44,019 nucleotides of DNA from Candidatus Omnitrophota bacterium. GTDB taxonomy: Bacteria; Omnitrophota; Gorgyraeia; 1-14-0-20-64-10. A model generated the notes under the pieces. The model saw only the letters and a list, made by a program, of their open reading frames with translations, was not told the origin of the DNA and made no database searches. Below are positions 12,840 through 27,030 of this stretch, piece after piece; position 1 is the first letter of the stretch, and each line of letters begins with the position of its first letter. The stretch spans positions 1 to 44,019 of the forward strand of contig JAHFFF010000001.1 of the NCBI GenBank assembly GCA_023248095.1, read 5' to 3'. The position numbers and the translations under genes are program-made.

Positions 12840-14341
12840 TACAGCTGGGTACGTAGCGTGCTGGCGGCAAACCTCTTTCCATGATGGAAACCATGGGAAT
12901 AGACCGTCGCATAATCAATTAAGGTGCTTCCCTTTCGGGAAACCTTTTCCGGCTCAAACCGATAATACGTTGTATTGTACACCTGAAAGGTAAGCATTTC
13001 CCCTTCCGTCTGCAGGGGGGACCGCAGGATATAAACAGGAATGGACTTTCCGACAATCCCTGGGACGAGGCGCTGGAACGCAGATCCTACGAGTCCATCC
13101 ACCCCCCAATAGAGATCCAGTTGATTGAGGGGATCCTTTATCCAGGTGTAGGGTATCCTCTGGGCAAAACTGTACTGGTCAATGAGAATCCGATCCCCTT
13201 GCAGGATGGAGCCCTTCTTCTCTTGGAGGGTCTCCAGGACCGCATTGTTCATCCGACATGATACGACCTGGTTCCAGGCAATTCCCTGATTTACCACCAA
13301 CCCCACACCCATCAAAAAGGTCATGAGGATCGGCCGAGCGCCGAAGAGGAAGCGGAGTACGGCAATGACGAAGATGGAAAAGCCGAGAGAGGCTAAGGCC
13401 GTATGCCGGCTCAGAGGCCCATAGGGCACTAAGGCTGCGGGGATCAGGAAGAGGATCGACATGGCCATCGAAAGAAGGATCGCCCGGAGGGGGATTTGAG
13501 GGATCGGGCTCTTCCGTAACCGCAGGAGGAATCCCCCAAGGGCCAGCCCGTTGCCCACCAGCAGAACAAAAATCCAGGGGGGTTCTATGAAGGGGAAGCG
13601 GGCCAGACCGTAGAGGGTCCACTTGATCATCTGGCGCCCGAAATAGAGATTCGGTACCGTTACGGACAGATTGGACCACAAATAATTGAGTGGGACGGGA
13701 TCGAGACCGGATCTCAATAACAGGTAGAACAATGCGGGGAGAAAGAACAGCAGGGATGCCCCAAGTTTTTTTCTGCCGTAGAGGGCTGCGGCGGCGACCA
13801 AGACAAAAGGAAGAAAGAAGCCCAGTTCGTACCAAAAAATGGAGATGGTATAGCAGATCAGCGAAGCCAAGAGAGAGAGCGGATTGGATTTTCTTAAATA
13901 GGCCAGAAAGAGGGCGAGGCCTGCTACCGTGATGGCATAGACGGCGTTCAAATGGGCATCCGCAAGGTGGTGGTAAAGCTGCTCCTTATTCGGGAGAAGG
14001 ATGAAGAAGGCGCTGCAGATTAAGCTCAGTAGGCGATCGCCGACAAGCTCCGTCATCAAGAAATAAACCGATACGGCCAGAAGGCTGCTGGCCAAGAAGA
14101 GCAGGGTGACCCAGAGCAGCTTATTCTCTCCGGCGAACCAGTGTAGGAGAATGTAGGAGATCTCCAAGGGACGACGCGCAGTGGTCAGCTGAGCACGGAC
14201 ATACTCCGCCCGTGCTTGTCCCGGAGAAATCTGAAGGATCTGCAGATCGTCTGAAGCCAGGGAGACCCGCTCAAAAGGCAGAAAATGGGCCAACAGATTG
14301 AGGCCGACTATGGCTGCGATGGGAAGAAGGGCCCTCTTCAT
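12839..14341 (-). CDS. Polytopic membrane protein with C-terminal soluble domain; GT-C-like glycosyltransferase or polymerase candidate
   Basis: 500 aa with about 11 hydrophobic segments. The first loop carries SLASDDLQIL (an acidic pair as in GT-C enzymes). The C-terminal ~150 aa are soluble. ATGA overlap at 14338-14341. Confidence 0.45.
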   Translation of the reverse strand: MKRALLPIAAIVGLNLLAHFLPFERVSLASDDLQILQISPGQARAEYVRAQLTTARRPLEISYILLHWFAGENKLLWVTLLFLASSLLAVSVYFLMTELVGDRLLSLICSAFFILLPNKEQLYHHLADAHLNAVYAITVAGLALFLAYLRKSNPLSLLASLICYTISIFWYELGFFLPFVLVAAAALYGRKKLGASLLFFLPALFYLLLRSGLDPVPLNYLWSNLSVTVPNLYFGRQMIKWTLYGLARFPFIEPPWIFVLLVGNGLALGGFLLRLRKSPIPQIPLRAILLSMAMSILFLIPAALVPYGPLSRHTALASLGFSIFVIAVLRFLFGARPILMTFLMGVGLVVNQGIAWNQVVSCRMNNAVLETLQEKKGSILQGDRILIDQYSFAQRIPYTWIKDPLNQLDLYWGVDGLVGSAFQRLVPGIVGKSIPVYILRSPLQTEGEMLTFQVYNTTYYRFEPEKVSRKGSTLIDYATVYSHGFHHGKRFAASTLRTQL

Positions 14342-15621
14342 CCGGGCAGGAGATGGACCTCGGGAAGCGGCACGATAAAGCGTGTGCCTTGAGTGACCAG
14401 CTGCGATTCTCGTTGTATGAAGTGGTTCACAAAGCTGTACGGCAGCACCAATAAATAATCCGGCTTGGCTAGACGCAGGGCGGCCTCGTCCCGAATGGGG
14501 ATGTCGGTACCGATCAGGTACTTCCCGTGCTTGAAGGGATTGGCATCGGCAGCCGCGTCAATCTCCTCCTTACCGATTCCACAGTATTGCAGGATCACGT
14601 TCCCCTTGGTTGAGGCACCGTAGACCCAGATGCTCTTTCCTTGGGCCCGTACGGATCGGCAGAGACGGACGAGATCTTCCCGGGTCTTTTCAATGCGTCC
14701 CATAAATGCCTGATACGTCGCTGGATCGGCGAGGCCCTCGGCCTCTTCCTCCTGCAGGAGACGGCGATAGCGATTCGATTCCGGATGCCTCGTGCACCCC
14801 TGGTGCTTCACGAAGACCCGGAAGCTGCCACCATAAACATCATTCAGGGTCACATCAAAAATGGCCAGGCCTACTTGCTCCATAATCCACTGCAACTGAC
14901 GGATGGCATAGTACCCGCAATGCTCATGGACGATGTTGTCATACATGTTCGTCCTTAACATGGAGGGCAGGTAGGCCATCTGGATGATCCAGGCTCCCTC
15001 GGCATCCAGGCACGCCGCCACCTCCCGTGAGAACCGAACGGGGTCGTTGAGGTGGTAGAACATCGCGATGCTGGTGATGAGCTTTGCCTTCCGGTGGGCC
15101 GCCGTCCTGTACACGGCTTGGCTGAACAGCTGACGAACGTGCGTGTAGTGGGGATCCTGGAAGATGGGCTGAACGTTCTGCGCAGGGTCGATACCGAGGA
15201 GTTTAAATCCCTGGCCACGGAAGCACGAAAGGAGTGTTCCATCGTTGGCGCCGATGTCTAGGATTACATCTCCCTTCTGAAGATGTCCGAGGGCAAGGCC
15301 GTCGTCTGCCACCTCCTTCAACATGAGCGGCATGGAGGAGTTGGTCGAGCTCGTGTAGGGGTATTCCTGGTACATGGCGTTCAAGTCAACGTGATGGGCC
15401 AACTGCACCAGACCACAGCTGGGGGGTGACTCCCGATGCGCGCACAAGACGAGCTCGAGGGGCCACTGCGCTGTGCTGGTGCGGTAATTGAGATGGGTTG
15501 GGAAGATGGAGGACAAGTGTTGCTTGCCAAGAGGGATGCAGGAAACCAGAGAGGTATTGCCGCAGACGCGACACTGCGTGATGGGGGCAGCCTCAACCGC
15601 CATTGATGGGGTGGTACCCAA
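14338..15621 (-). CDS. NDP-hexose C-methyltransferase-type SAM methyltransferase (TylCIII-like architecture)
   Basis: N-terminal Zn-ribbon CRVCGN...(about 40 aa)...C..., SAM motif VILDIGANDGTLL, and a C-terminal C-methyltransferase-type domain (...VYGASTKGNVILQY...YLLVLPYSF...). Confidence 0.7.
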   Translation of the reverse strand: MGTTPSMAVEAAPITQCRVCGNTSLVSCIPLGKQHLSSIFPTHLNYRTSTAQWPLELVLCAHRESPPSCGLVQLAHHVDLNAMYQEYPYTSSTNSSMPLMLKEVADDGLALGHLQKGDVILDIGANDGTLLSCFRGQGFKLLGIDPAQNVQPIFQDPHYTHVRQLFSQAVYRTAAHRKAKLITSIAMFYHLNDPVRFSREVAACLDAEGAWIIQMAYLPSMLRTNMYDNIVHEHCGYYAIRQLQWIMEQVGLAIFDVTLNDVYGGSFRVFVKHQGCTRHPESNRYRRLLQEEEAEGLADPATYQAFMGRIEKTREDLVRLCRSVRAQGKSIWVYGASTKGNVILQYCGIGKEEIDAAADANPFKHGKYLIGTDIPIRDEAALRLAKPDYLLVLPYSFVNHFIQRESQLVTQGTRFIVPLPEVHLLPG

Positions 15622-15626
15622 TGGGG

Positions 15627-16343
15627 TTAGCCCGTCCTGCTGGATTGAGGCCGATGCCCGAGGGGTTGCAGGACCCGGAGGACGTCGCGGGCATCGGGAA
15701 AATTGGGCTCAGGATTTTCGATCTCCTGATGATCGATAGCCCCTTCAAATTCCACACGGCAGCCCAGGTGGTCGGCCACCTCCCGTAACTCCACGGCGTT
15801 TCGCGCCCCGACCTCAACGGTGCCCGTCCGGTCCAGATGGGTGGCGATCCAGGTGCTGACAAACTCGAGGGGAGCGAAACAGTACCGGCTTTCTGCCGCC
15901 ACATAGACCTTTCGTCCCTGAAGCATATCCACCAGCACGCCCTTGTCCAATTCGGGGCTGTACATGGGGCCTAAGCGGATGATCAGATGTTCTGCGAACC
16001 CGCAGAGATTCTCCGCCGCCGCCTTGTGGCGTCCGTACACCGTGTCGAGTTGGCATCTCGCTGACACGGTGCTGATCTGCACGAATTTCCGGTGCCGCCA
16101 GCGATAAAGGAGGTCGGCGGTCTTCTGTACTGTTTCAACGAAGTCCCGGCCGGGGTCCGTCTTTGCGAGAAAGCGCTTCGACGGCATCGCCGCGTTGATA
16201 AGGATGTCGAAGGTGTTCTCCTGCATCTGGGTGTAGTTGGCGCGGGTTACTGCCGTCACAACCATGCGAGGGTTCCGCCCAATGGCCTGTGCCAGCGCCC
16301 CCCCCACGTACCCCGACGCGCCAACGACAGCAACCTTAGTCAT
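15627..16343 (-). CDS. NAD(P)-dependent epimerase/reductase (short extended-SDR)
   Basis: VAVVGASGYVGGAL Rossmann motif and catalytic YGRHK (YxxxK). 238 aa. Confidence 0.65.
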   Translation of the reverse strand: MTKVAVVGASGYVGGALAQAIGRNPRMVVTAVTRANYTQMQENTFDILINAAMPSKRFLAKTDPGRDFVETVQKTADLLYRWRHRKFVQISTVSARCQLDTVYGRHKAAAENLCGFAEHLIIRLGPMYSPELDKGVLVDMLQGRKVYVAAESRYCFAPLEFVSTWIATHLDRTGTVEVGARNAVELREVADHLGCRVEFEGAIDHQEIENPEPNFPDARDVLRVLQPLGHRPQSSRTG

Positions 16344-16737
16344 GAACCGGCGGCGGCGCCATCACATGCATGTGAATAATGGGTTTCTCACAATCGTCCC
16401 ACGGCTTTGACAACATCGAGATGGCCGTGACCGGAGTAATGGCATAGAAGGTGTGCACCACGCCCATCGGATTGTGAGAACACATCCCCTTCCCCATATG
16501 GATGACCTCTTCTGGAGCGTTCTCAGAATCCTTAGTAATCATCACTCCTTCGCCTTCGACGATGAGAAAGTATTCATGGAATTCCGGATGGTAATGGTTC
16601 CCCCTCGTCCTCCCCGGCTTGAAGTAGAGCATGTTGAACTCCATAATCTTATGCTCCGGAACCCACGTGAAGATTCCCCCCCGTCCGTCACGCACGGTAT
16701 CAAGATTACACGAGGGAGTTAATATCCTAATTTTCAT
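16336..16737 (-). CDS. Cupin-fold sugar epimerase/isomerase (CapF C-terminal-domain-like/WxcM-like)
   Basis: Start set to ATG 16737 (MKIRIL...), preceded by AGGAGG 9 nt upstream; the track ORF extends to 16812. RGNHYHPEFHEYFLIVEGEG is a cupin motif 1 with His ligands. Confidence 0.6.
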   Translation of the reverse strand: MKIRILTPSCNLDTVRDGRGGIFTWVPEHKIMEFNMLYFKPGRTRGNHYHPEFHEYFLIVEGEGVMITKDSENAPEEVIHMGKGMCSHNPMGVVHTFYAITPVTAISMLSKPWDDCEKPIIHMHVMAPPPVHD

Positions 16738-16746
16738 GGATGCTGA

Positions 16747-16752
16747 CCTCCT
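16747..16752 (-). promoter_or_regulatory. Shine-Dalgarno AGGAGG for the cupin gene
   Basis: Plus-strand CCTCCT at 16747-16752, 9 nt upstream of ATG 16737. Confidence 0.6.
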
Positions 16753-16851
16753 GATGATGGCATTACCATTGGCTTCAGTCTGCTGCATCTGGTACGGAAC
16801 CTGCTGTTGCACAGGTGGATCGAGGGGTTCGTCCGACGAAGATGATGTAGC

Positions 16852-17826
16852 CTAACATGCAGCGGGTGGTTTGTCAACGAGACGCGAGGGATCATCGGTT
16901 TTCCCATTAAAGAACCGAAGGACGTTCCTTGCGCAAGAGAACTCCATGGCAGAACGGGAAGCGCGCGTCAGGGTGGATACGTGTGGCGTGCACAAAACCT
17001 GAGGCAAATCGCGCAGCCTTCCTTGATACGGTTCCTCTTCAAAGACATCCAGTGCTGCCGCAGAGAGCCGCCCTGAGGAGAGGGCCTCTTCCAACCCCCG
17101 CTCATCCACCAGGTAACCTCGGGCCGTGTTGACCAACCGACTGCCCGGTTTCATGGAAAATAACTCCGCGTGTCCTAAGAGGGGTCCCTCCTCTTTCGAG
17201 CGGCTGGCATGAAGGGAAACCAGATCGGACTCAGCCAGAAGTTTCCCCAGATCGCAGAGGGTGATTCCCGCGGGAACCTCCTCGGGGTGCAGCCTCGGAT
17301 CCGCTGCCAGGATTTTGGGGCCGAAGATCTGAAGGTAGCGCCCCACTGCCTGCCCGATTCGACCAAAACCCACCAGCCCAATGGTCCATTCTGAAAGAAG
17401 GAACCCGGTCTGCTTGCGCCATTTCCCCTGCCCCATGTCCCGCAGGTGTTGAGGAAAGTGGCGTGCCAGCGCCAAGATCATTCCTACCGTCATCTGGGCC
17501 ACCGGCTCCACCACTTCCTCGGCGGTGGTAAAAACGGCGACCTTGAGCTTCTGTGCAGTCTCCAGATCGATGGAATCGGTGCCCACGCCGCAGCGGCTGA
17601 TCACCTTCAATCGGGAAAGCGAGCGGAGGAGTTGCGCGTCGTATGGCTCCACGCCGGCCAAAATCGCGTCTGCCTCCTGCAGCAGTGGAAGCATCTCCTC
17701 CCGTTTCAGGCGTCTGCCTAACTCATTTCGGCGGACGTCAAATCCGGCCTCCTGCAGGAGGCGCAGTGGCCGATCGTCTGATTCACAGAACTGTTGAAGC
17801 GCTACAAAGACCGTGGGGCGATTCAT
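16852..17826 (-). CDS. D-isomer-specific 2-hydroxyacid dehydrogenase (phosphoglycerate dehydrogenase-like)
   Basis: IGLVGFGRIGQAVG NAD motif; NTARG; EEPY...CTPHVS catalytic His region. Confidence 0.85.
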   Translation of the reverse strand: MNRPTVFVALQQFCESDDRPLRLLQEAGFDVRRNELGRRLKREEMLPLLQEADAILAGVEPYDAQLLRSLSRLKVISRCGVGTDSIDLETAQKLKVAVFTTAEEVVEPVAQMTVGMILALARHFPQHLRDMGQGKWRKQTGFLLSEWTIGLVGFGRIGQAVGRYLQIFGPKILAADPRLHPEEVPAGITLCDLGKLLAESDLVSLHASRSKEEGPLLGHAELFSMKPGSRLVNTARGYLVDERGLEEALSSGRLSAAALDVFEEEPYQGRLRDLPQVLCTPHVSTLTRASRSAMEFSCARNVLRFFNGKTDDPSRLVDKPPAAC

Positions 17827-18599
17827 CTCAACAGCTGTTGAAGCACTTCCCGCTGAAGGGAATCTCTCTCCAGGAGGGACTCCACTTGCTTCACCTCGTG
17901 GGGCAGATTGATCCCCGGATAGCCTCGAGTAAAGAGCACGCCTTGAAGGATGAAATCGTGCTCCAGGATACGGGACTGATCGACCGATTCACGAACCTCC
18001 ATCGGGGTTCGAGGCAACCTCGAGTATCGCTGGAGGAATTCTTTTTGGTAACCCAGGATTCCGAGCACCTTGCGGACCGGTTCCATGCTGTTGCGGATGC
18101 CATTGGAGAAACAGGAGATATTCCGGGAACAGAACAGGATGCGCCCGGAAACAGAAACAACGCATTTGACGACAGAGTCGTCGGCCAGTTCATCCGGGCC
18201 ATCGAGTGCGGCTACGGCGTTCCAGGCCGGCAGGGAGGGCCTTTCCTTGATGGCGCGCACCATCTTCTCCAAGTCGGCGGGTAGGGCCAGGATCTCATCT
18301 CCCTGAACGTTTACGATGTGAGTGCACTCTAGGGATTCGGCTGCTTCCGCGACGCGGTCGGTCGCAGCCGGGTGAGTCGGCGAAGTCATGATGACCTTAC
18401 CCCCCGCGTCACGGATGACTTGGGCAATCTCCGGATCGCACGTTGCCACCACGACGTCATGAAATCCTTCGCACAACAGGGCCCTGCGGCGGACGTGTTC
18501 CACCATGGGAAGCCCCCGGATCTTGAGCAGCGGTTTGCCCGGGAATCGGCTGGAGGCCATGCGCACGGGAATCACCGCAACGATTCGGACCGCGTCCAT
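17823..18599 (-). CDS. KdsB/NeuA-family cytidylyltransferase (CMP-ulosonic acid synthetase-like)
   Basis: VAVIPVRMASSRFPGKPL, ATDRV (GTDR-like) and VNVQGDEI (VNVQGDEP-like) are KdsB-family signatures. ATGA overlap at 17823-17826. Confidence 0.75.
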   Translation of the reverse strand: MDAVRIVAVIPVRMASSRFPGKPLLKIRGLPMVEHVRRRALLCEGFHDVVVATCDPEIAQVIRDAGGKVIMTSPTHPAATDRVAEAAESLECTHIVNVQGDEILALPADLEKMVRAIKERPSLPAWNAVAALDGPDELADDSVVKCVVSVSGRILFCSRNISCFSNGIRNSMEPVRKVLGILGYQKEFLQRYSRLPRTPMEVRESVDQSRILEHDFILQGVLFTRGYPGINLPHEVKQVESLLERDSLQREVLQQLLR

Positions 18600-18605
18600 G
18601 GGGCG

Positions 18606-19370
18606 TTACTGGGGCAATGTGCCGCAGTCCACGTTGATGCACTGCCCTGTTACCGCGGAAGAGGCGGGTGATGCCAGGAAGTACACCACCTCAGCGACCT
18701 CTTGGGCCGTTGGCAATCGACCCAGAGCGGTCTGAGCCGCCGCAAAGGTGGCCAAATACGTTTCCACCGTTTGTCCATGCGCCGGTGCGGCAGGCTCGGA
18801 GAGAGAGGCCAGGATCTGCTCCGTCTCCACGTAGACTGGGCAAACCGCGTTCACTCGAATTCCGCGAGGCCCCAATTCCTTGGCCAGCGCCTGTGTGATG
18901 CCGTTGACCGCGAACTTCGCGGCGCAGTAGGCGCTGTTATTCGCCGATCCCCGTTTCCCGGCCAGGGAGGAGATGTTGACGATGCTCCCGCCGGGTTTCA
19001 TCACGGCCGCCATAGCGGCGCATCCCCACAGGGTTCCCAACACAGGGGTCTCGATGACCTCTGATACGAACGACTCATCAATGGCATCAATCGGACGCCA
19101 CCGGGACACCCCCGCGCAGTTGACGAAGAGATCGGGGGTCCCGAACTGCTTCAGAACCTCCTCCACGAAATGTCGCACCTGGGTTCGGACCCGGACATCG
19201 ACGGTAAAGTGCACGATCCCCTCCGGCAACGAAGGGTCCCTGGGCGAACGGGAGCAGATCACTACCCGGTCGCCTCTCGCGTGGAAGAGCTCGGCGATGG
19301 AGCGACCGATCCCACGCGTCGCCCCGGTTAGGGCAACCACCCGCTGGGCCGGAGGGGATGGGAGGCTCAT
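18606..19370 (-). CDS. Short-chain dehydrogenase/reductase (FabG-like)
   Basis: VVALTGATRGIGRSIA, NCAG, catalytic YCAAKFAV. Confidence 0.8.
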   Translation of the reverse strand: MSLPSPPAQRVVALTGATRGIGRSIAELFHARGDRVVICSRSPRDPSLPEGIVHFTVDVRVRTQVRHFVEEVLKQFGTPDLFVNCAGVSRWRPIDAIDESFVSEVIETPVLGTLWGCAAMAAVMKPGGSIVNISSLAGKRGSANNSAYCAAKFAVNGITQALAKELGPRGIRVNAVCPVYVETEQILASLSEPAAPAHGQTVETYLATFAAAQTALGRLPTAQEVAEVVYFLASPASSAVTGQCINVDCGTLPQ

Positions 19371-20998
19371 CGAACCTTTCGAAAGGAGCCGTCAGGATCC
19401 TCCAATCGGTAATGCAACACCCCTACCCCCTCCGAGGTGAGGAGGAAATCAAGAGGGTGCTCGGTGAGGGTGAATGTCGCTTGGGGATCGGTCACCGGCG
19501 TCCCTTCGAACCGGTACGGTTTCGGATCGATCCCCAGATGTTTCAGAAGGGTTGGCAGGACATCGATCTGACGGAGAACAGGACGGAACACCCTGCCCTC
19601 TTTCTGTCCCGGCCGTTTGAGCGCGAAGAAAACGCTCACCAAATCCGGGGGGGCCGGGATCGCCTCTTCCCCCTTGACATTTCGCGCACCGGCGTCGTAT
19701 CCGGTGTCCGATGTCACCACGATGAGAGCGCGGTCGTAGATCCCTTCCTGCTTTAGGAATTCCAGGAAAGAACCCAGCTCTCGATCAAAGATGGCTAGGT
19801 TCTTCCGAGCGCCTTCTAGCTCCTTCGAATACTTCTCGGCGGAAAACTGCTTGAAACCGGAATACTTCACATCGGGACCATCGCTGATCCAGTTGTGCAT
19901 GATGTATAAATTGGGCGCCGTGCCTTCCTTTTTCAAGACCTCCTTGAGGGCCTCGAACTGCTTCCTACCGGAAACGTGTTGAAGCTGCTCTCCAGGTTTC
20001 AGGGACGCCGACTCCCGGGCCCACAGGTCGAACCACGGGTTGAAATGCCAGCCCAGCAGGGTGAGCCTGACTTCCAGCGGGTCGGGGATGATCGGCAAGA
20101 GATAGGTCTTGTACCAGCCGACAATGATGTCCAAGCCCCGGTGGGTCTTGCCAACGGCGCGTAGGCAGATGTTACGCCTCGGATTGCAATAGTCGGTCAG
20201 GATGTCCAGGACTAGGAAGACCCGACGCTTGGCCCCCACGATGTCCCTGAGATTCGGGTATCGTGTCCAGTTCCGTTCACTGGAGAGGAGCCGTCCGGAG
20301 TACAGCGTTTTGAGCGAGTAGACCGTCGCCGTGCAGTTCGCGTAGGTCCGGGGATAATAATCGGCTCCCGACACAAAGCGGGTCAGGTTCGGGAATCGAT
20401 CCAGGATTTTCCCCTGCCCATCCGTCAGGTAGGAGTTGCACAACTTCTCAAAGGTGAAGAAGAAGACGGGGGCTGTCCCCTCAGAGCTGGTCGGAAGGAA
20501 GGTCGGTTGATAGGAACCCCCTTGCCCGGAGGGGGCCGCCTGGAAGGCGAAGGTGAGAAAGACCGCCAGGCTGAGGACGGCACAGCTCTTCAGGATGCGA
20601 TCGATGCCCTTCCGGAAGCGATACAGGGAGACCGCCAGCAGCAGGAAGATGCCCAGGAGGGCGAACTTCCGCCACTCGGCTTTCAGAAAATAGAACTGCA
20701 GGATATGAAAGTTGAGCTGCATGGAAAAGAGGAAGCTGACAACCACAGAAAAAAAGAGGGAACTCAGCCGTTCGGAGATGGCAGCGAACGCCCAAAAGAA
20801 AAGGCCCACCAACAGGGGGATCCCCACAAAGGTCAGGACACAGAAGAGGCAGAACGTCGGCCAATCCCAGCTTCCCAGGCTCAAGGACTGCGGATCCTCG
20901 AGAATCATCGTTGCCAATGGAATTTGGAACAGCAAAGTGACGGCTCCCCACGCCGAAAAGAAGAGACCCCACTCAGTAGATTTTTTGAAGGATATCAC
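19367..20998 (-). CDS. Membrane-anchored alkaline-phosphatase/sulfatase-fold transferase (LtaS/EptA/OpgB-like architecture)
   Basis: About 5 N-terminal TM helices, then a soluble domain with VFFFTFEKL..., ANCTATVYSLKTLYSGR at the position of the sulfatase signature, and ALIVVTSDTGY (SDHG-like). GTG start at 20998; ATGA overlap at its 3' end (19367-19370). Confidence 0.65.
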   Translation of the reverse strand: MISFKKSTEWGLFFSAWGAVTLLFQIPLATMILEDPQSLSLGSWDWPTFCLFCVLTFVGIPLLVGLFFWAFAAISERLSSLFFSVVVSFLFSMQLNFHILQFYFLKAEWRKFALLGIFLLLAVSLYRFRKGIDRILKSCAVLSLAVFLTFAFQAAPSGQGGSYQPTFLPTSSEGTAPVFFFTFEKLCNSYLTDGQGKILDRFPNLTRFVSGADYYPRTYANCTATVYSLKTLYSGRLLSSERNWTRYPNLRDIVGAKRRVFLVLDILTDYCNPRRNICLRAVGKTHRGLDIIVGWYKTYLLPIIPDPLEVRLTLLGWHFNPWFDLWARESASLKPGEQLQHVSGRKQFEALKEVLKKEGTAPNLYIMHNWISDGPDVKYSGFKQFSAEKYSKELEGARKNLAIFDRELGSFLEFLKQEGIYDRALIVVTSDTGYDAGARNVKGEEAIPAPPDLVSVFFALKRPGQKEGRVFRPVLRQIDVLPTLLKHLGIDPKPYRFEGTPVTDPQATFTLTEHPLDFLLTSEGVGVLHYRLEDPDGSFRKVR

Positions 20999-22100
20999 GT
21001 AACACCTCCTGTGTGACTTCCCGAGGGTTGTTCACTACCCGGTCCGACCGGAACCCGTTTTCGATGACGTTATTGATCCCCTGCTGGTCAAGGCCAAGTT
21101 TCCGAAGGGACCGTTCCAAACCGGCTTCATCCATCAACCCCTCTACCCGGCGAGCGGCCTCCTCCCAGGAGGAGATACCGAGGGTCTTCAGGAGGTGGGC
21201 CCCTCGCTCGGGTTCTAAGACAGGGCCGTTGTACCGTATAAAGGAAGGCAGCGTGAGGGCGCAGGCATGCCCATGGGGGATCTCGTAGAAGGTGGTGAGC
21301 GGATAGGAAACCGCATGGACTGCCGTGGTGCGGGTCTGCGTGATCGCCAGCCCCGCTTCAGTACTGGCCAGGGACATCGCAAACCGGGCCTCCCGTTGCG
21401 AGGGTTCTCTCAGAACCGTGGGAAGATTTTCAAGAATGAGTGCGATGGCGCGTAGGGAGTGGGTTTCAGAAAACGGTGTATGGTGAACAGACCAAAAGGA
21501 TTCAATGGCCTGGGAAAGGGCATCCAATCCACTGCAAGCGGTCACGTATTTTGGCATGGAGTAGGTCAGCAAGGGATCGATTAAGGCGATCTCTGGAAAA
21601 AGCCAGGGATGGGTCAGGCTAATCTTCTGGTGGGACCGAGTCTGAAGCGAGGCGTAGGGGGTGACTTCACTTCCAGTTCCCGCCGTTGTGGGAACGGCGA
21701 TCAAGGGCAAACCTCGGTGTTGGAACTCCCTGCGTTTCTCCACGTAATCTTCCAAGGCGACGTCCTCTTGCGTCAGCAGGATCCGAATGGCCTTTGCACA
21801 GTCCAGTACGCTTCCGCCTCCAATGCCCACCACCAAGTCGAATTTCCTTCCCCGCAGAGTCCGCCACATCTCTTGAATGAAGGTCACACTGGGGTTGTGC
21901 TCCACAGGATCCGATTCCTCCAGGCAGAACCCGCCCAGCCCTTCTTTGAGACGCCGATGTCCCACGGAACTCCGGAAGGAGGACTTGCCTAGAAGGAGGA
22001 GGACCTTCTTGGGCCGGAAAGAGGCGACCATCTCGGGCAGCCGATCTAGCGCGCCGTCGGCGATGATTCGCTGGGTAGGATTCCAGTACCCCCAATTCAT
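20973..22100 (-). CDS. Group III iron-containing alcohol dehydrogenase; by context a phosphonoacetaldehyde reductase candidate (PhpC/FomC/Pdh-like)
   Basis: VVGIGGGSVLDCAKAI and PTTAGTGSEVT are Fe-ADH family motifs. ATG 22100 lies 5 nt after the PepM stop. Confidence 0.75.
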   Translation of the reverse strand: MNWGYWNPTQRIIADGALDRLPEMVASFRPKKVLLLLGKSSFRSSVGHRRLKEGLGGFCLEESDPVEHNPSVTFIQEMWRTLRGRKFDLVVGIGGGSVLDCAKAIRILLTQEDVALEDYVEKRREFQHRGLPLIAVPTTAGTGSEVTPYASLQTRSHQKISLTHPWLFPEIALIDPLLTYSMPKYVTACSGLDALSQAIESFWSVHHTPFSETHSLRAIALILENLPTVLREPSQREARFAMSLASTEAGLAITQTRTTAVHAVSYPLTTFYEIPHGHACALTLPSFIRYNGPVLEPERGAHLLKTLGISSWEEAARRVEGLMDEAGLERSLRKLGLDQQGINNVIENGFRSDRVVNNPREVTQEVLRDILQKIY

Positions 22101-22105
22101 CTGAT

Positions 22106-23818
22106 CTAGGCCGCTGAAGGAGCTTGGACTCCAGCTAGGGTCGAGGCCGACCTTCGGAAATGGGCCTCGGCGCGTTCGACATCGGAACGGGAATGAACCT
22201 CAGACCAACCGTGCTCAATCTCCATACCGAACACTTGAAAATTACGATCCAACAGGTACCGGAGCAAATCGGTGAAGTCAGCTTCCGCTACACTCGAGGC
22301 CTCATAGAAGGGTTTGCCTTGATACTCACCCTGAGCTTGCTCCCAGGCACGCTTTAAGACATCCAACCCCTTTTCTCTGAGGAAGGCCATCCCGATAAAT
22401 TCATGGGTCGGTTGGGCTCCCAACAGGCGTTTTCCAATGTGCCGAATGGGTTTGTAGAGGTCGAGTTCCAAACGCCGCGGGGAACCTGGCGGTAACGCCG
22501 GATCATCGACGGCGACCAAATCAAGCGCCTTCTTACGCGTGGGGAGGGTCTGGTAAGCCCGGTCGATCACCAGCGTGATGGGGTGCGGGCTTCCCAGGAG
22601 CCGGGCCAGGATTTGCCGGTCGAAGAGTATGTCGGAGTAGAGGATAACGGTCTTCCCTTTGAGTTGCTCGCCGGCAAACAGGATGGAATGGGCGCAGTGC
22701 GTCTTGCGGTAATCTGGGTTGTACAAGACACGGGCCCCCTCCGCTCGGAGCTTCTCATGCAGATGCCCTCCCACCACAACAACATCGGTGATCCCCACCG
22801 AGTGAAGGGCGGTCAATTGCCGTTCCAGGAGAGTTTGCCCGCCCACCTCCAGCATGCACAAGGGTTTGTCCTTTAACAGTTCCTTCAAATCCGGTTGGAA
22901 CTGATGATCCCGTGCGGCAGGGATCACCGCTTGCACGTTGGCCCCATCGGAGAATCTCCTCTCATCCTCCCGCATAGCACTCATCCCTTGCAACTCGAAC
23001 ACCTCCCGGAGAGAGGCGACCTTCTCCTCAATATCCGCCGTCGTTCCCATCCTTTGAATGGTTTCCAGCGTCGTCTCGATGGCGCGAATGGAGGCCCGGA
23101 GCCCATGGTTGGCGTAGATCACCATCTTAAAGCCCCCTCTCTCCAGCTCGGCTGCCGTGACCCGATAGTAGGTCGTGGGGATGGCGACCAAGGGAATGTT
23201 CCGATCCCACCGCCTTGCAAAGGAAAATACCTCTTCGGGCTCGGACGCCTTCGAGTGAATGACAATCCCATCCGCTCCTGCCTCCGCATAGGCGGCGGCG
23301 CGCCTCAACGCCTCCTCCATTCCCCATCCCGCGATCAGGGCCTCCACTCGGGCGAATACCATCAGATGAGGATTGCGCTGAGCCTCCTTGGCGGCCCGGA
23401 TCCTCCCTACGAATTCCTCCACCGAGGCCAACGCCTGCCGTCCCGGGATGAAGCTGTTCACCTTCGGGAACTGTTTGTCTTCAATCACAATGGCCGCCAG
23501 CCCCGCGGCCTCGTATTTCTTGACCATGTGCTTGACGTTGGAAGCGTTCCCGTATCCCGTATCACAGTCGCAGATGACTGGCAATGCAGTCGCCTCGTTG
23601 ATGGCCCGCGCCGCTTCCAGGTTCTCCGTCATGGTCAGGATGTTGGCATCGGGTAGGCCGTAGGCGGTGGAGATCTCCAGGCCACTGGCCCAAACCCCAT
23701 CGAAGCCGGAACGCTCAATGAGCTTTGCCCCCAGCCCATTGTGGGCCCCCACCACCTTCAGGATCCCCTTGGACCGGAAGGCCTCCCGCATCCGTGCGGC
23801 CTTGTCGCTCAAGGGCAA
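22106..23818 (-). CDS. pepM: Phosphoenolpyruvate mutase (N-terminal ~290 aa) fused to a divergent LicC/PntC-like nucleotidyltransferase domain (C-terminal ~275 aa)
   Basis: GAHNGLGAKL, CDCDTGYG and the PepM-diagnostic EDKQFPKVNS (nt 23453-23482) are present. The C-terminal domain is paralogous to the NTase domain of 24497..25708 (EFIGM, GKPF, GW.E blocks). Start is TTG 23818 with GGAGGAGG just upstream; an alternative ATG lies at 23791. Confidence 0.9.
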   Translation of the reverse strand: MPLSDKAARMREAFRSKGILKVVGAHNGLGAKLIERSGFDGVWASGLEISTAYGLPDANILTMTENLEAARAINEATALPVICDCDTGYGNASNVKHMVKKYEAAGLAAIVIEDKQFPKVNSFIPGRQALASVEEFVGRIRAAKEAQRNPHLMVFARVEALIAGWGMEEALRRAAAYAEAGADGIVIHSKASEPEEVFSFARRWDRNIPLVAIPTTYYRVTAAELERGGFKMVIYANHGLRASIRAIETTLETIQRMGTTADIEEKVASLREVFELQGMSAMREDERRFSDGANVQAVIPAARDHQFQPDLKELLKDKPLCMLEVGGQTLLERQLTALHSVGITDVVVVGGHLHEKLRAEGARVLYNPDYRKTHCAHSILFAGEQLKGKTVILYSDILFDRQILARLLGSPHPITLVIDRAYQTLPTRKKALDLVAVDDPALPPGSPRRLELDLYKPIRHIGKRLLGAQPTHEFIGMAFLREKGLDVLKRAWEQAQGEYQGKPFYEASSVAEADFTDLLRYLLDRNFQVFGMEIEHGWSEVHSRSDVERAEAHFRRSASTLAGVQAPSAA

Positions 23819-24537
23819 GCCTCCTCCGATGATTTTGGATAGTAATCCTGCTCGTCCGAGACAATGCGGCTAAGGTTTCTCCCGCCCAGTAGGGCCAACT
23901 CCTGACGCGCATCACCCGTCAGGTGCTGCGCGAACGTAATGGCCAGGATCCTGCCTGGGTTCTTTGCATCCGGGGAATAAAATCCGTGTGGGACAAAACC
24001 TGGGATAAGCCAGGAGTCTCCCTTCTCAAAGACCTCCTCCCAAACCTTCCCCTCCCACTCCCAAAGGTAGGCTACAGGGCCCCCATCCAGGACCTGGGTG
24101 TACTGATGGAAGAAATGGCCCCGATTGAGCACCACCTCTTCTCTTCGATGAAGATGAAGGAGCAATTCCACCGGCTTGATGTTGGGTAAAACCGGTGTCA
24201 TCACCCTTTCCCAGTAGGTGTACTGCAGCCGACCTGCCCTTTCCTGGTCAAACCGCCGGGCGGAGCGGCCGCGGAGGAATTTCATCCCCCGATCCAAGTC
24301 ATTCTCCAGAGGCAGCAGGTCCCGGACGCTCACGGAAAATTGCCTGGCCAGCAGCTCCAATTCCCCCCAGGTCGGTTGACCCTCTCCCCGTTCCAAGAAA
24401 CTCAGGCGTTCACTGGAGATCCCCGTATCGCGGGAGACGGTTTCTAAGGAATGTTTGACCTCGTTGCGCCAGGCATGGATGAGGCTACCGTAGTTTTTAA
24501 ACGCGGCGGTTGGAACGGACGTTTGAAGTTGCGACAT
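23809..24537 (-). CDS. HTH(XRE-like)+cupin protein, HppE/HEPD/MPnS-superfamily-like non-haem iron enzyme candidate
   Basis: 242 aa. N-terminal XRE-type HTH (HSLETVSRDTGISSERLSFLERGE). Cupin motif 1 NRGHFFHQ (N138, H141, Q145) and cupin motif 2 GDSWLIPGFVPHGF (H184). ATG 24537 is preceded by AAGGGAG 8 nt upstream. Confidence 0.65.
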   Translation of the reverse strand: MSQLQTSVPTAAFKNYGSLIHAWRNEVKHSLETVSRDTGISSERLSFLERGEGQPTWGELELLARQFSVSVRDLLPLENDLDRGMKFLRGRSARRFDQERAGRLQYTYWERVMTPVLPNIKPVELLLHLHRREEVVLNRGHFFHQYTQVLDGGPVAYLWEWEGKVWEEVFEKGDSWLIPGFVPHGFYSPDAKNPGRILAITFAQHLTGDARQELALLGGRNLSRIVSDEQDYYPKSSEEACP

Positions 24538-25708
24538 GCAGAGGACTCCCTTTTTGTTGGAACACCGTGACAGCCTTCTTGAAGTCTTCGATGGTGTCGA
24601 TCTCTTTCCAGCCGGACCCGATGATCTCGCAATGGATGGGGACTCCCAGATCCGCCATTTCCTGGAAGAGATCGGTGAGATACGCCTTTTGAAACTGGTC
24701 GGCCCTCTGGAAGGGCCCGCCGTCGTAAAGAGCCTTGGCCCGATGGTAATGTCGCCGCAGGATCTCGCAACCCCTACGGGTCAGCTTGCACATCCCAATG
24801 AATTCCCCGTGCACCTCTTCCTTCTCGGCGGCAATCTTTCCGATCTTGATCACCTCGTTGTTGCTGTTAAAGATGACGTTCTCCGCCTCTTCAATCGGGT
24901 GGTCCTTCCGGCCAAGATAATAGTCCTTCCAGTCGATATCCACCCCGATCGCGATGTCCTTCTCGCATCGAAGAAGCCTCTTGACCACCGCCTCTTCATA
25001 CCAGATGTCCGTATAGGAGATGATAACCTCCCCATCCAGCTCTTCCTCTGCGCAGAAGAGGGAGGCCAGCATGTTGGTGGTCTGGGGGGTTGGGTTCTCA
25101 TAGTATCTTACCCCGGGGTTGTTGATCTTCTCCGCCTTATATCCCCGAACTACGGAGATCTCGCCGATTCTGCAGGAGCGAAGGGTTTCGAGCTGGGTCT
25201 GTAAGAGGGTCTTCCCGTTGAGAACGATGGCCATGCACTTCGGAAAATCCTCTGTCAGGGGCCTTAAGCGTGAACCTAGCCCAGCTGCCAGCAGAACAGC
25301 CTTCACCTCAACGGAGCCAATCCTCTTGGTCAAGTCTCGAATGCGCTGGGCTGAGGCCTGGTGCTGTTGGAGGGCCCTGAGAAGATTCACCGATTCGGGA
25401 TGGGCCTTCACGATGCCGGGCACATCCGGCGGGATTCGGTCAGGTTCTAGGCCGGCAAGATCAAACAGGTCCTCCTCCGCCGCGCCCAAGGCAGCGGCCA
25501 GCTTCTGAATGACTCCCTTCGAGGGTGGTTTGCGGTGCAGGCTTTCAATATCGCTCAAATAGGAGCTTGTAACGCCCACCCGTTGGGCTAGCCCTCTTAA
25601 GGAAAGGCCCGTCTTCTGGCGGAGGGTTTTGATCTCCACCCCAAAGGGCTTCCTAGAGGAGTTTCGAGTCTTTGATCCGTTGGTGTTTCGGGGGGTATCC
25701 CTGCGCAA
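24497..25708 (-). CDS. XRE-type HTH domain fused to a LicC/PntC-like nucleotidyltransferase (canonical G-loop)
   Basis: HTH: IKTLRQKTGLSLRGLAQRVGVTSSYLSDIE. NTase: KAVLLAAGLGSRLRPLTEDFPKCM (nt 25259-25294). The track start at 25708 is TTG. GTG 25639 (VEIKTLRQ...), with AGGAAG upstream, is an equally plausible start. Confidence 0.75.
   Translation of the reverse strand: MRRDTPRNTNGSKTRNSSRKPFGVEIKTLRQKTGLSLRGLAQRVGVTSSYLSDIESLHRKPPSKGVIQKLAAALGAAEEDLFDLAGLEPDRIPPDVPGIVKAHPESVNLLRALQQHQASAQRIRDLTKRIGSVEVKAVLLAAGLGSRLRPLTEDFPKCMAIVLNGKTLLQTQLETLRSCRIGEISVVRGYKAEKINNPGVRYYENPTPQTTNMLASLFCAEEELDGEVIISYTDIWYEEAVVKRLLRCEKDIAIGVDIDWKDYYLGRKDHPIEEAENVIFNSNNEVIKIGKIAAEKEEVHGEFIGMCKLTRRGCEILRRHYHRAKALYDGGPFQRADQFQKAYLTDLFQEMADLGVPIHCEIIGSGWKEIDTIEDFKKAVTVFQQKGSPLHVATSNVRSNRRV
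24546..24550 (-). promoter_or_regulatory. Shine-Dalgarno GGGAG for the HTH-cupin gene, embedded in the 3' end of the upstream NTase gene
   Basis: Plus-strand CTCCC at 24546-24550, 8 nt upstream of ATG 24537. Confidence 0.5.
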
Positions 25709-25748: not shown

Positions 25749-26873
25749 TCAAACTGTGAGACACAGTTCAAGGAGGAACTGGCCCCCGACCCTTCCCGCC
25801 GCTCCCGGGTGGTAAACCGATTGAGTGCGTTCCTCAAGGATTCGGTCCCGATAGGCGCTTTGATTCTCCAGCAGGTCGCGGACCTCGCTGCCCATTTGAC
25901 CGCTTCTCTCCACAAGGACGGTTTTCCCGATCCGGTCCCGAAGGCGAACCTCCAGGGGGATGATCCCAAGCTCCTCATAGCGAGGGTTGTGGACCTTACG
26001 CGGCACCTCCATAAACAGGACTGGCCTTTCGGTCCCGAAGGCGTATTCCAAGGCGATGCCTGACCAGTCGGTGATCAGGACATCGGATTCGAGAAGGGTT
26101 TGATCCGTCAGCGGTCCGAAATCCCACTTGACCTTGGAATCCTCAGGCCATTTCTGCCTGAGTTGGGCCAACCTCTTGGGATAACGCTTGACCCACTCCG
26201 GGTGGGGCCGAATGACCACGGTAAAATCATCCTTCACCAGGGCGCGGACCACTTCGGAGACACAGGATTCCAGGATGTTGTCCGCCCCCCAGGAGGGGGC
26301 GATGAGAACCCTCCTACCAGCTGGGGCCAAGGAGTCCGATCGCATCTGAAGAAGGCGGTCTAGGGAGGGATAGCCGACCTCCAGGAGCTGCTTGGCAGGG
26401 GTCTGATAGAGCTGCTCGGAACGGCGCAGTTCCGACAGGTGGTGAGGGCCGACGCAGAAGATGACGTCGTAGTGATCGAACGCTCCGAAGCGATAAATCA
26501 TGTGTGTGCTGACCATGGCGTGGAAAATGTAGACGTGCCGGGTACCCCAGACCGATCGGCGGATACTGTAGCGATTCAAATCCGGCAGGGTCATCACGAG
26601 AACCTTCGCATCCAAAAAGAGGATGACGAAGGGGAGCAGGTGTTTGAAGTAGAAACTCCTCAGGCGATCGGGTGCCTGCGAAAGGATGGGGTCGTCCGGC
26701 TCCGAGGTGATGTAGCAAATCGTCAAAGAGGGCTGCCTCAAGAGCTCGCGGATGAATCCCTCGAAATAGGGGAGGTAGCCCCTGCCCTCCGTATAAAAGA
26801 CGATCTGTCTTTCTTCTTTGCGCAGGCCAACGAAGCGTTTCAGATCAACGCATTCGCGAAGAAAGGAGCGCAT
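25749..26873 (-). CDS. TagB/TagF-family CDP-alcohol phosphotransferase (Glyphos_transf-like)
   Basis: Start set to ATG 26873 (MRSFLRE...), 13 nt after the upstream small-ORF stop. VLIAPSWG, VVIRPHP and VLITDWSGIALEYAF correspond to the TagF YAPTWR / HP / LITDYSS blocks. Confidence 0.75.
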   Translation of the reverse strand: MRSFLRECVDLKRFVGLRKEERQIVFYTEGRGYLPYFEGFIRELLRQPSLTICYITSEPDDPILSQAPDRLRSFYFKHLLPFVILFLDAKVLVMTLPDLNRYSIRRSVWGTRHVYIFHAMVSTHMIYRFGAFDHYDVIFCVGPHHLSELRRSEQLYQTPAKQLLEVGYPSLDRLLQMRSDSLAPAGRRVLIAPSWGADNILESCVSEVVRALVKDDFTVVIRPHPEWVKRYPKRLAQLRQKWPEDSKVKWDFGPLTDQTLLESDVLITDWSGIALEYAFGTERPVLFMEVPRKVHNPRYEELGIIPLEVRLRDRIGKTVLVERSGQMGSEVRDLLENQSAYRDRILEERTQSVYHPGAAGRVGGQFLLELCLTV

Positions 26874-26886
26874 CCTCCCGCACTCT

Positions 26887-27030
26887 CTACTTCTTTCGAG
26901 TCCAAAAGGATTTAATCGAGTACAAGATCGATCGGATTCCGATGAAGATCGACCCAATCCCGACAACGATCAGCTGAATGAGAAGACCGCCCGTTCCTGG
27001 GTTCATGTAGGCCAGTGGCATCTGGATCAT
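26887..27030 (-). CDS. Small single-TM peptide (47 aa), function unknown
   Basis: MIQMPLAYMNPGTGGLLIQLIVVGIGSIFIGIRSILYSIKSFWTRKK. GGAGG (27038-27042) lies 7 nt upstream of ATG 27030, and the ORF sits between two tightly packed genes. It has a hydrophobic core and a basic C-terminus. Confidence 0.45.
   Translation of the reverse strand: MIQMPLAYMNPGTGGLLIQLIVVGIGSIFIGIRSILYSIKSFWTRKK

Follow-up and report, generated by a model that had tools for sequence, protein, structure and literature searches.

The closest described relatives of the protein reported here are three groups of non-heme-iron oxygenases of phosphonate metabolism. MPnS, the methylphosphonate synthase of Nitrosopumilus maritimus (PDB 6B9S/6B9T), is built of two tandem modules in 457 aa, and so is the class-II HEPD of Streptomyces albus (SaHEPD; 6B9R) a two-module protein. 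The class-I HEPD of Streptomyces viridochromogenes (PhpD; 3G7D) has 2-hydroxyethylphosphonate (2-HEP) as its substrate, whereas the epoxidase HppE (Fom4, 1ZZ6; Psf4, 5U55) is a homo-oligomer of one-module subunits of about 190-200 aa with (S)-2-hydroxypropylphosphonate (2-HPP) as substrate. All three contain a helix-turn-helix (HTH)-like alpha domain, which serves both structure and catalysis, and MPnS is, to our knowledge, the only known biological route to methylphosphonate (MPn), the substrate behind aerobic methane production. Here we analysed a 44,019-nt stretch of DNA from a Candidatus Omnitrophota bacterium (assembly GCA_023248095.1, contig JAHFFF010000001.1, positions 1 to 44,019; hereafter the window), in which a minus-strand gene (23809-24537) codes for a protein of 242 aa that combines one HTH-like domain with one cupin. 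We consider it probable, at roughly 60%, that the product of this gene is a one-module oxygenase of the HEPD/MPnS/HppE family, dependent on Fe(II) and O2, with 2-HEP as its substrate and MPn as the favoured outcome. This reading is built on homology, residue conservation and operon context; what the enzyme acts on, how it oligomerises, what it produces and where the product goes are predicted from the homologues.

The protein and its single-module family

The open reading frame (ORF) of the candidate oxygenase starts with ATG, with a Shine-Dalgarno sequence (GGGAG) 8 nt 5' of it, and the HTH-like domain and single cupin claimed for it by the first-pass annotation are both present. The N-terminal, XRE/HTH-like alpha domain (residues ~12-76; 24310..24504, minus strand) was recognised by Pfam HTH_3 on residues 20-74 (27.5 bits, gathering threshold 23) and is modelled as helices 14-27, 31-38, 42-49, 57-67 and 71-74. 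The cupin beta domain (residues ~95-202; 23932..24255, minus strand), matched by Pfam Cupin_2 below threshold only, is supported by alignment to MPnS and SaHEPD and by the confidence of its modelled barrel strands, and is followed by a C-terminal tail (residues 203-242; 23812..23931, minus strand). A search of NCBIfam with the 242-aa protein returned no matching model.

Searched with phmmer against all PDB sequences, the protein matched MPnS best (6B9S, E = 1.9e-37, about 32% identity to the N module), followed by SaHEPD (6B9R, 6.9e-34), the Pseudomonas HppE (5U55, 8e-9, 31% identity over the 124-residue Psf4 alignment) and the Streptomyces HppE (1ZZ6, 1.5e-6, about 24% identity to Fom4); XRE regulators appeared at 4e-3 or poorer only, and PhpD was not detected among the matches at E <= 10. 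Both halves of MPnS (23-224 and 259-455), and likewise both halves of SaHEPD, each aligned to the whole query, which therefore corresponds to one module of the two-module enzymes.

The phmmer alignments paired K28 (within NEVKHS) with MPnS K28 and HppE K23, R100 with MPnS R102, Y106 and Y108 with MPnS Y108 and Y110 and HppE Y103 and Y105, and N138 (24124-24126) with MPnS N145 and HppE N135. MPnS K28', R102, Y110 and N145, which we take to be the residues that bind the phosphonate, thus have equivalents in K28, R100, Y108 and N138. The metal ligands were paired in the same way: H141 (24115-24117) with MPnS H148 and HppE H138, Q145 (24103-24105) with MPnS Q152 and HppE E142, and the distal ligand H184 (23986..23988, minus strand) with MPnS H190 and HppE H180. 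The query and MPnS hence share a 2-His-1-Gln triad with the same H-x3-Q...H spacing, the first half of which is encoded at 24103..24117 on the minus strand (HFFHQ); the surrounding motifs are NRGHFFHQ in the query vs NNGHFMHQ in MPnS, and FVPH vs FTPH. Two further cupin residues, Y157 and I178, occupy second-sphere positions, Ile178 being equivalent to MPnS Ile184. K28, Y106, Y108, N138, H141, Q145 and H184 had all been named in the first-pass annotation, together with residue numbers for HppE and MPnS; each was found at its codon, and the numbering given for the two enzymes proved right and collinear in the alignments.

Several features set the protein apart from each relative. It lacks the 'NDPxN' insertion that stands ahead of the N-x-x-H motif in MPnS, and it has one module instead of two. 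With class-II HEPD it shares the 2-His-1-Gln triad, the phosphonate-binding residues, a G-P-V hairpin motif and a Tyr at position 157 (163 in SaHEPD). HppE has the same one-module layout of alpha domain and cupin, but its third ligand is Glu142 where the query has Gln145. The ligands of PhpD are presumably His129, Glu176 and His182, with the Glu six residues ahead of the distal His, a position taken in the query by Ile178 (six before H184). The tail had been described as an extra element of about 40 aa; it is indeed absent from HppE, whose alignments to the query end at residue 202, but it is no addition, as residues 203-237 align both to the inter-module linker of MPnS (205-224) and to its C-terminal end (420-455), an element common to the two proteins. 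Its residues D209, E213, R224 and Y232 are invariant in the family alignment. As for the label 'HppE-like' given to a one-module protein with an MPnS-like triad, the scaffold and the ligands hold, as does the claim that the protein matches no characterised HppE, HEPD or MPnS; yet because the sequence is far closer to MPnS and class-II HEPD, 'half an MPnS/HEPD' is the better description.

The AlphaFold2 model, for which 28 family sequences were aligned, had a mean predicted local distance difference test (pLDDT) score of 76.8 and a predicted TM-score (pTM) of 0.59, with most barrel strands at about 85-95. Compared with the PDB in Foldseek, its first matches were HppE (3.3e-15), MPnS (7.7e-15) and SaHEPD (2e-14), followed by PhpD at 7.6e-11 (8e-11 to 1e-10 among its matches, placing it in the same fold family) and by the best regulator, the HTH_3 protein 1y9q, at 1.8e-9. 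The TM-scores were low (about 0.48), probably reflecting domains that are oriented differently in the monomer model.

The protein is not a singleton but a member of a conserved family of at least 120 single-module proteins in uncultured bacteria. The protein database contained 163 relatives at E <= 1e-5, and the family counts given here refer to the best 120 of these. All but one of the 120 are 226-250 aa long (the exception has 214 aa), they are 61-87% identical to the query, and all come from metagenomes or metagenome-assembled genomes (MAGs), where they are named, if at all, 'XRE family transcriptional regulator' or 'hypothetical protein'. R100, Y106, Y108, N138, H141, Q145, D174, S175, W176, I178 and H184 are invariant in 120/120, and K28 is kept in 119/120. 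Among the GTDB species representatives the gene was found in Planctomycetia MAGs (the closest, at 76-78% identity), in Omnitrophota and in Nitrospinia, as well as in single bins labelled Gammaproteobacteria or Actinomycetota; several of these MAGs derive from groundwater or a glacier-fed stream, and further loci come from groundwater metagenomes. No cultured organism was among the relatives found. When 1.84 billion representatives, clustered at 50% identity, were searched exhaustively with a profile, the family collapsed to one representative, and the other relatives were nearly all two-module proteins of about 450 aa.

A second single-module lineage of Omnitrophota (P0133; 242 aa, as are 13/13 members of its cluster) carries, at the five positions classed below, the full H-Q-F-I-H combination, and its gene (L024 8001-8729) lies in a locus with genes for PepM fused to a nucleotidyltransferase, Ppd (phosphonopyruvate decarboxylase), a further nucleotidyltransferase, a radical SAM protein, Fe-ADH and a phosphonate-binding ABC transporter. 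A third single-module protein (P0123; 238 aa) is encoded away from pepM.

For the evolutionary position of these proteins we used profile scores in place of neighbour-joining (NJ) trees, with one profile built from the canonical N modules of two-module proteins and another from their canonical C modules. Canonical N modules scored about 300 bits on the N-profile and 75-84 bits on the C-profile, and canonical C modules 21-57 and 181-239 bits, respectively. The query scored 136.5 and 120.5 bits, its close relative P0070 145.5 and 128.7, P0123 169.7 and 158.4, and P0133 143.8 and 106.5. Because these scores are about equal and intermediate, the single-module proteins look like an unspecialised module that combines N-module catalytic features with C-module structural ones, and the family, judged by its profiles, looks like the kind of module from which the two-module enzymes arose. 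An NJ tree of 204 modules put the family now with the N modules and now with the C modules, and a 57-taxon NJ bootstrap gave low and partly implausible supports (0.755 for the obvious pair of query and P0070), which we did not rely on.

The nearest relative of the family, P0121, is a two-module protein of 447 aa (L011 1244-2587; L026 10001-11344), both modules of which have the single-module family as best BLAST match (44-47% identity for the N module, 34% for the C module). Its C module has lost the ligands, and its gene adjoins genes for Ppd, Fe-ADH, a sulfatase and a nucleotidyltransferase. P0121 may represent an independent duplication. Four other two-module proteins (P0122, P0124, P0131 and P0149) carry the motif GHFQ[HD][GSA], with neither Gln nor Glu at the third-ligand position and with Ala at the position of Ile178; a PhpD-like assignment of this group was rejected, its nearest PDB matches being SaHEPD and MPnS.

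The operon around the cupin gene

The cupin gene is tightly embedded in an operon, as it overlaps its neighbours at both ends, by 10 nt and by 41 nt. The first-pass annotation had placed it next to pepM and one gene from an iron alcohol dehydrogenase (Fe-ADH), and these neighbours are correct; the 10 nt that it read as a gap are an overlap of the pepM TTG start with the cupin stop codon. The pepM gene (22106..23818, minus strand) encodes a phosphoenolpyruvate (PEP) mutase (residues 1-~290; Pfam PEP_mutase, 1e-57) fused to a C-terminal LicC-like nucleotidyltransferase (NTP_transf_3), a domain order that we take to be the opposite of that in Fom1. It scored 323.8 bits on TIGR02320, above the NCBIfam equivalog cut-off of 319.55, its PDB matches were 5unc (1e-113) and, for the nucleotidyltransferase domain, 1jyk, and its motif EDKQFPKVNS fits the EDK(X)5NS criterion for PepM (PMC8931226).

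On the other side, overlapping the cupin start by 41 nt, lies a gene for a LicC-like nucleotidyltransferase with an N-terminal XRE-type HTH (24497..25708, minus strand; PDB 1jyk, 7.9e-14), a candidate cytidylyltransferase that would activate a phosphonate. The nearest solved relative of both nucleotidyltransferase domains is the CTP:phosphocholine cytidylyltransferase LicC (1jyk), and the domain fused to PepM is a paralogue of the upstream protein, at 28-32% identity. In nearly all related loci the cupin gene is directly preceded by one for a homologue of the latter, which in L002 has no HTH. A shared docking domain formed by this HTH and the cupin alpha domain was considered and rejected, since comparison revealed no specific similarity between the two.

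Only 5 nt separate pepM from the gene of a group-III Fe-ADH (20973..22100, minus strand; Pfam Fe-ADH), a candidate phosphonoacetaldehyde reductase making 2-HEP. Its best NCBIfam match was TIGR03405 Phn_Fe-ADH (1.5e-76, under the cut-off), and its identity to the Fe-ADH proteins encoded in related loci is 50-76%. Across independent MAGs and metagenomes the same gene order recurs, namely an [HTH-]LicC-like nucleotidyltransferase, the cupin protein and PepM with its LicC-like nucleotidyltransferase, and in five loci (L002, L005, L009, L018, L022) Ppd and Fe-ADH come after PepM. The set pepM-ppd-Fe-ADH is the canonical route from PEP through phosphonopyruvate (PnPy) and phosphonoacetaldehyde to 2-HEP. 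The neighbourhood of MPnS likewise contains pepM, Fe-ADH, nucleotidyltransferase and sulfatase-like genes, and where pepM, ppd and pdh stand together with MPnS, the window has pepM and Fe-ADH adjacent without ppd. The closest Planctomycetia loci (L008/L014 and L013) have the same Ppd-less order, and in more distant relatives the order is pepM-ppd-Fe-ADH. The Ppd-less genomes must either carry ppd at another site or consume PnPy by some other route.

In many related operons, genes for a NUDIX hydrolase and a cytidylate kinase directly follow Fe-ADH (L005 14730-16012; L009 12633-13885; also L016, L018 and L020), which suggests turnover of intermediates linked to cytidine monophosphate (CMP). In L008, the closest of the long related loci, a B12-binding radical SAM protein, which may belong to the Fom3/PhpK-like class, is encoded three genes past Fe-ADH (14242-15783) and has no counterpart in the window.

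Predicted reaction, product and alternative readings

In the mechanism we propose, Fe(II) would be bound by H141, Q145 and H184, and 2-HEP would be a bidentate iron ligand, coordinating with its hydroxyl group and with one oxygen of the phosphonate, with the phosphonate clamped by R100, Y108 and N138 and by K28 from the alpha domain of a partner subunit. Activation of O2 would then lead to abstraction of a hydrogen from C2 and to C1-C2 cleavage, giving formate and an MPn radical. Because the protein has one module only, it would need to form a homodimer or larger oligomer that rebuilds the pseudo-dimeric body of the fused MPnS/HEPD modules, each subunit being catalytic. Packing of the invariant Ile178 on Gln145 would favour the MPnS outcome (MPn and CO2) over the HEPD outcome (hydroxymethylphosphonate, HMP, and formate), with Tyr157 leaving room. 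The adjacent LicC-like nucleotidyltransferases would then cytidylylate the product for transfer to a surface glycan made by the 44-kb locus.

PMC11978286 quotes Born et al. 2017 to the effect that MPn synthesis requires the 2-His-1-Gln triad together with Phe162, adjacent to the Gln, and Ile184. We therefore classed 197 modules at the five positions equivalent to 141, 145, 157, 178 and 184 of the query. The MPnS signature H-Q-F-I-H was found in 79/197 modules, N. maritimus MPnS among them, and the class-II HEPD signature H-Q-Y-G-H in 23/197, including SaHEPD. The query combination, H-Q-Y-I-H, occurred only in its own family and in one two-module cluster (P0231), which bears the JGI label methylphosphonate synthase by automatic annotation only. 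Within the family position 157 varies (Tyr in 102 members, Phe in 17, Cys in 1) and Ile178 is constant, so that 17/120 carry the full H-Q-F-I-H. The pairing of Y157 with SaHEPD Y163 and MPnS F162 is drawn from the common G-P-V motif and the HMMER alignment to SaHEPD, and hairpin strands 144-151 and 155-161 of the model would bring 157 to the face that bears 145; against MPnS, HMMER aligns this stretch with an offset of one residue, which leaves the equivalence with F162 not beyond doubt. As predicted from these positions, the second sphere is mixed, MPnS-like at Ile178 and HEPD-like at Tyr157, and the product cannot be read off it. We nevertheless favour MPn over HMP, since the Ile that would lock the Gln is invariant and since Tyr and Phe interchange freely in an otherwise tightly conserved family.

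The strongest competitor, though clearly the less likely outcome, is a HEPD-type reaction converting 2-HEP to HMP and formate, in which Tyr157, like Tyr163 of SaHEPD, would let the Gln leave the iron. The prevalence of Tyr at this position speaks for it, as does the higher score of the query on the class-II HEPD profile (113 bits) than on the MPnS-signature profile (95.5 bits). Class-II HEPD, however, combines Tyr163 with Gly184, and none of its 23 H-Q-Y-G-H modules has the Ile that the query family invariably carries; the swap of Tyr and Phe within one tightly conserved family arguably deprives position 157 of a decisive role, and H-Q-Y-I-H recurs in P0231 under its automatic methylphosphonate synthase label. 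Of the Phe and Ile seen in MPnS, the window protein has the Ile.

More doubtful is a different substrate or chemistry: phosphonolactate, supplied by a dehydrogenase encoded at 16852-17826, CMP-linked 2-HEP, or 2-HPP, which would be dehydrogenated or epoxidised as by HppE. Ppd was found neither in the window nor in the closest Planctomycetia loci, and the dehydrogenase, a PGDH-like D-2-hydroxyacid dehydrogenase of the VlpB-type Pfam family (PMC8942020), lies in the same strand cluster 3 kb downstream. The cytidylyltransferase gene that abuts the cupin gene in nearly all loci, together with the NUDIX and cytidylate kinase genes of related operons, fits a CMP conjugate, while the B12-radical SAM gene of L008 and the single-module architecture recall HppE. 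Against these stand proteins 61-70% identical to the query within complete pepM-ppd-Fe-ADH operons and the retention of all MPnS residues that bind the free phosphonate. The D-2-hydroxyacid dehydrogenase gene is not conserved beside the cupin gene in L008. To make 2-HPP, through a Fom3-type B12 radical SAM enzyme or the Psf route, a methylation is needed, and the window encodes no enzyme for it (Pfam and tblastn detected no radical SAM or B12-binding protein there), and HppE is the most distant of the three relatives, with Glu in place of Gln.

Some observations weigh against an MPn-forming oxygenase of 2-HEP. The window protein has Tyr157 at the position of MPnS Phe162, and the family is nested in neither the MPnS-signature group (95.5 bits) nor the class-II HEPD group (113 bits); its best profile (135 bits) is that of the small uncharacterised two-module group without Gln at the ligand position (P0122 and relatives). 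The AlphaFold2 model is only moderate, and the geometry of the triad is predicted from alignment to crystallised homologues. Searches for ppd in the 44-kb window (Pfam, and tblastn with Ppd from three related loci) found none, so that 2-HEP is only presumably supplied in this organism, and given the tight pairing with the cytidylyltransferase the true substrate is possibly a CMP conjugate. The enzymatic role of all family members is itself a prediction from sequence and context.

That the protein is instead an XRE-family HTH-cupin transcription regulator, sensing phosphonate or metal and controlling the operon, strikes us as very improbable. Its HTH_3 domain passes the gathering threshold, its relatives bear the name of such regulators in public sources, and 1y9q appeared in the fold search. 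Clustering with ordinary XRE-cupin regulators was looked for and not seen, the enzymes being ahead by about 30 orders of magnitude in sequence E-value and about 6 in the fold comparison. HppE, HEPD and MPnS moreover have the same alpha domain, the catalytic and substrate-binding residues are all invariant, and the gene is wedged between two biosynthetic genes, overlapping both. That the gene is a two-module one cut short or pseudogenised, or an error of gene calling, as the length of about 450 aa of the characterised relatives might suggest, can be dismissed, as the best 120 homologues share the single-module length and the same conserved tail end with pepM directly after, no remnant of a second module fits, and the cupin stop overlaps pepM.

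If the protein is the proposed oxygenase, its chemistry and fold are known and what is new is the minimal architecture and the second-sphere combination. A more far-reaching proposal, which we put forward tentatively, is that the family represents an ancestral-type, homo-oligomeric, half-size methylphosphonate synthase, a hidden source of MPn in groundwater and fresh water and a living intermediate between the one-module HppE and the two-module HEPD and MPnS. In the parts of the freshwater and groundwater literature drawn on here, mpnS was not found or was rare, though C-P-lyase-driven methane production from MPn was evident (PMC10734540, PMC11978286). Were the proposal true, annotation as an XRE regulator would let the family escape marker surveys for mpnS that use KEGG K18049 or similarity to known MPnS. 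As a conserved half-size relative in complete 2-HEP operons of Omnitrophota, Planctomycetia and Nitrospinia MAGs, the family is a directly testable candidate for the missing MPn producer. The natural Tyr/Ile and Phe/Ile combinations provide material to test the second-sphere rule for MPn vs HMP, and do so on what is predicted to be a minimal homo-oligomeric scaffold, every subunit of which is expected to be catalytic. A full-text search, which left most subscription journals outside and so yields absence of evidence only, found no description of single-module MPnS/HEPD homologues.

The surrounding glycan locus

All sizeable genes of the window (1-44019) lie on the minus strand and form one long glycan-assembly locus, with GT2, GT4 and GT87 glycosyltransferases, FkbM and other methyltransferases, sugar-modifying enzymes, an HpcH aldolase, a transaldolase/FSA, a GmhA-like SIS protein, an RmlD-like protein and an ABC exporter. 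Two members flank the phosphonate genes. Upstream lies a gene for a TagF-like protein of the CDP-glycerol glycerophosphotransferase family (25749..26966, minus strand; Pfam Glyphos_transf, 6e-10), a candidate transferase of the activated phosphonate onto the glycan, which is kept in the closest loci L008/L014 and in L013. Downstream, a membrane protein with a sulfatase/LtaS-like domain (19367..20998, minus strand; Pfam Sulfatase, 4.6e-8, and a weak LtaS match) would be a candidate phosph(on)otransferase, with orthologues 52-56% identical in L008 and L013. The locus thereby parallels the surroundings of mpnS in marine organisms, in which nucleotidyltransferases, sulfatases and glycosyltransferases suggest MPn esters on a polysaccharide (PMC9381506).

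Further along the minus strand, at 16852-19370, the D-2-hydroxyacid dehydrogenase gene stands in a row with those of a KdsB-like cytidylyltransferase (over one NCBIfam subfamily cut-off) and a short-chain dehydrogenase/reductase (SDR); these genes could serve to make and activate a sugar acid, or to reduce PnPy to phosphonolactate. Several ORFs of 450-650 aa in the window had no family match. A further group at 14338-16812 on the same strand comprises genes for a small FdtA-like cupin of 158 aa, an epimerase-like protein and a three-domain sugar C-methyltransferase, whose products probably supply the same glycan with a branched or modified deoxysugar.

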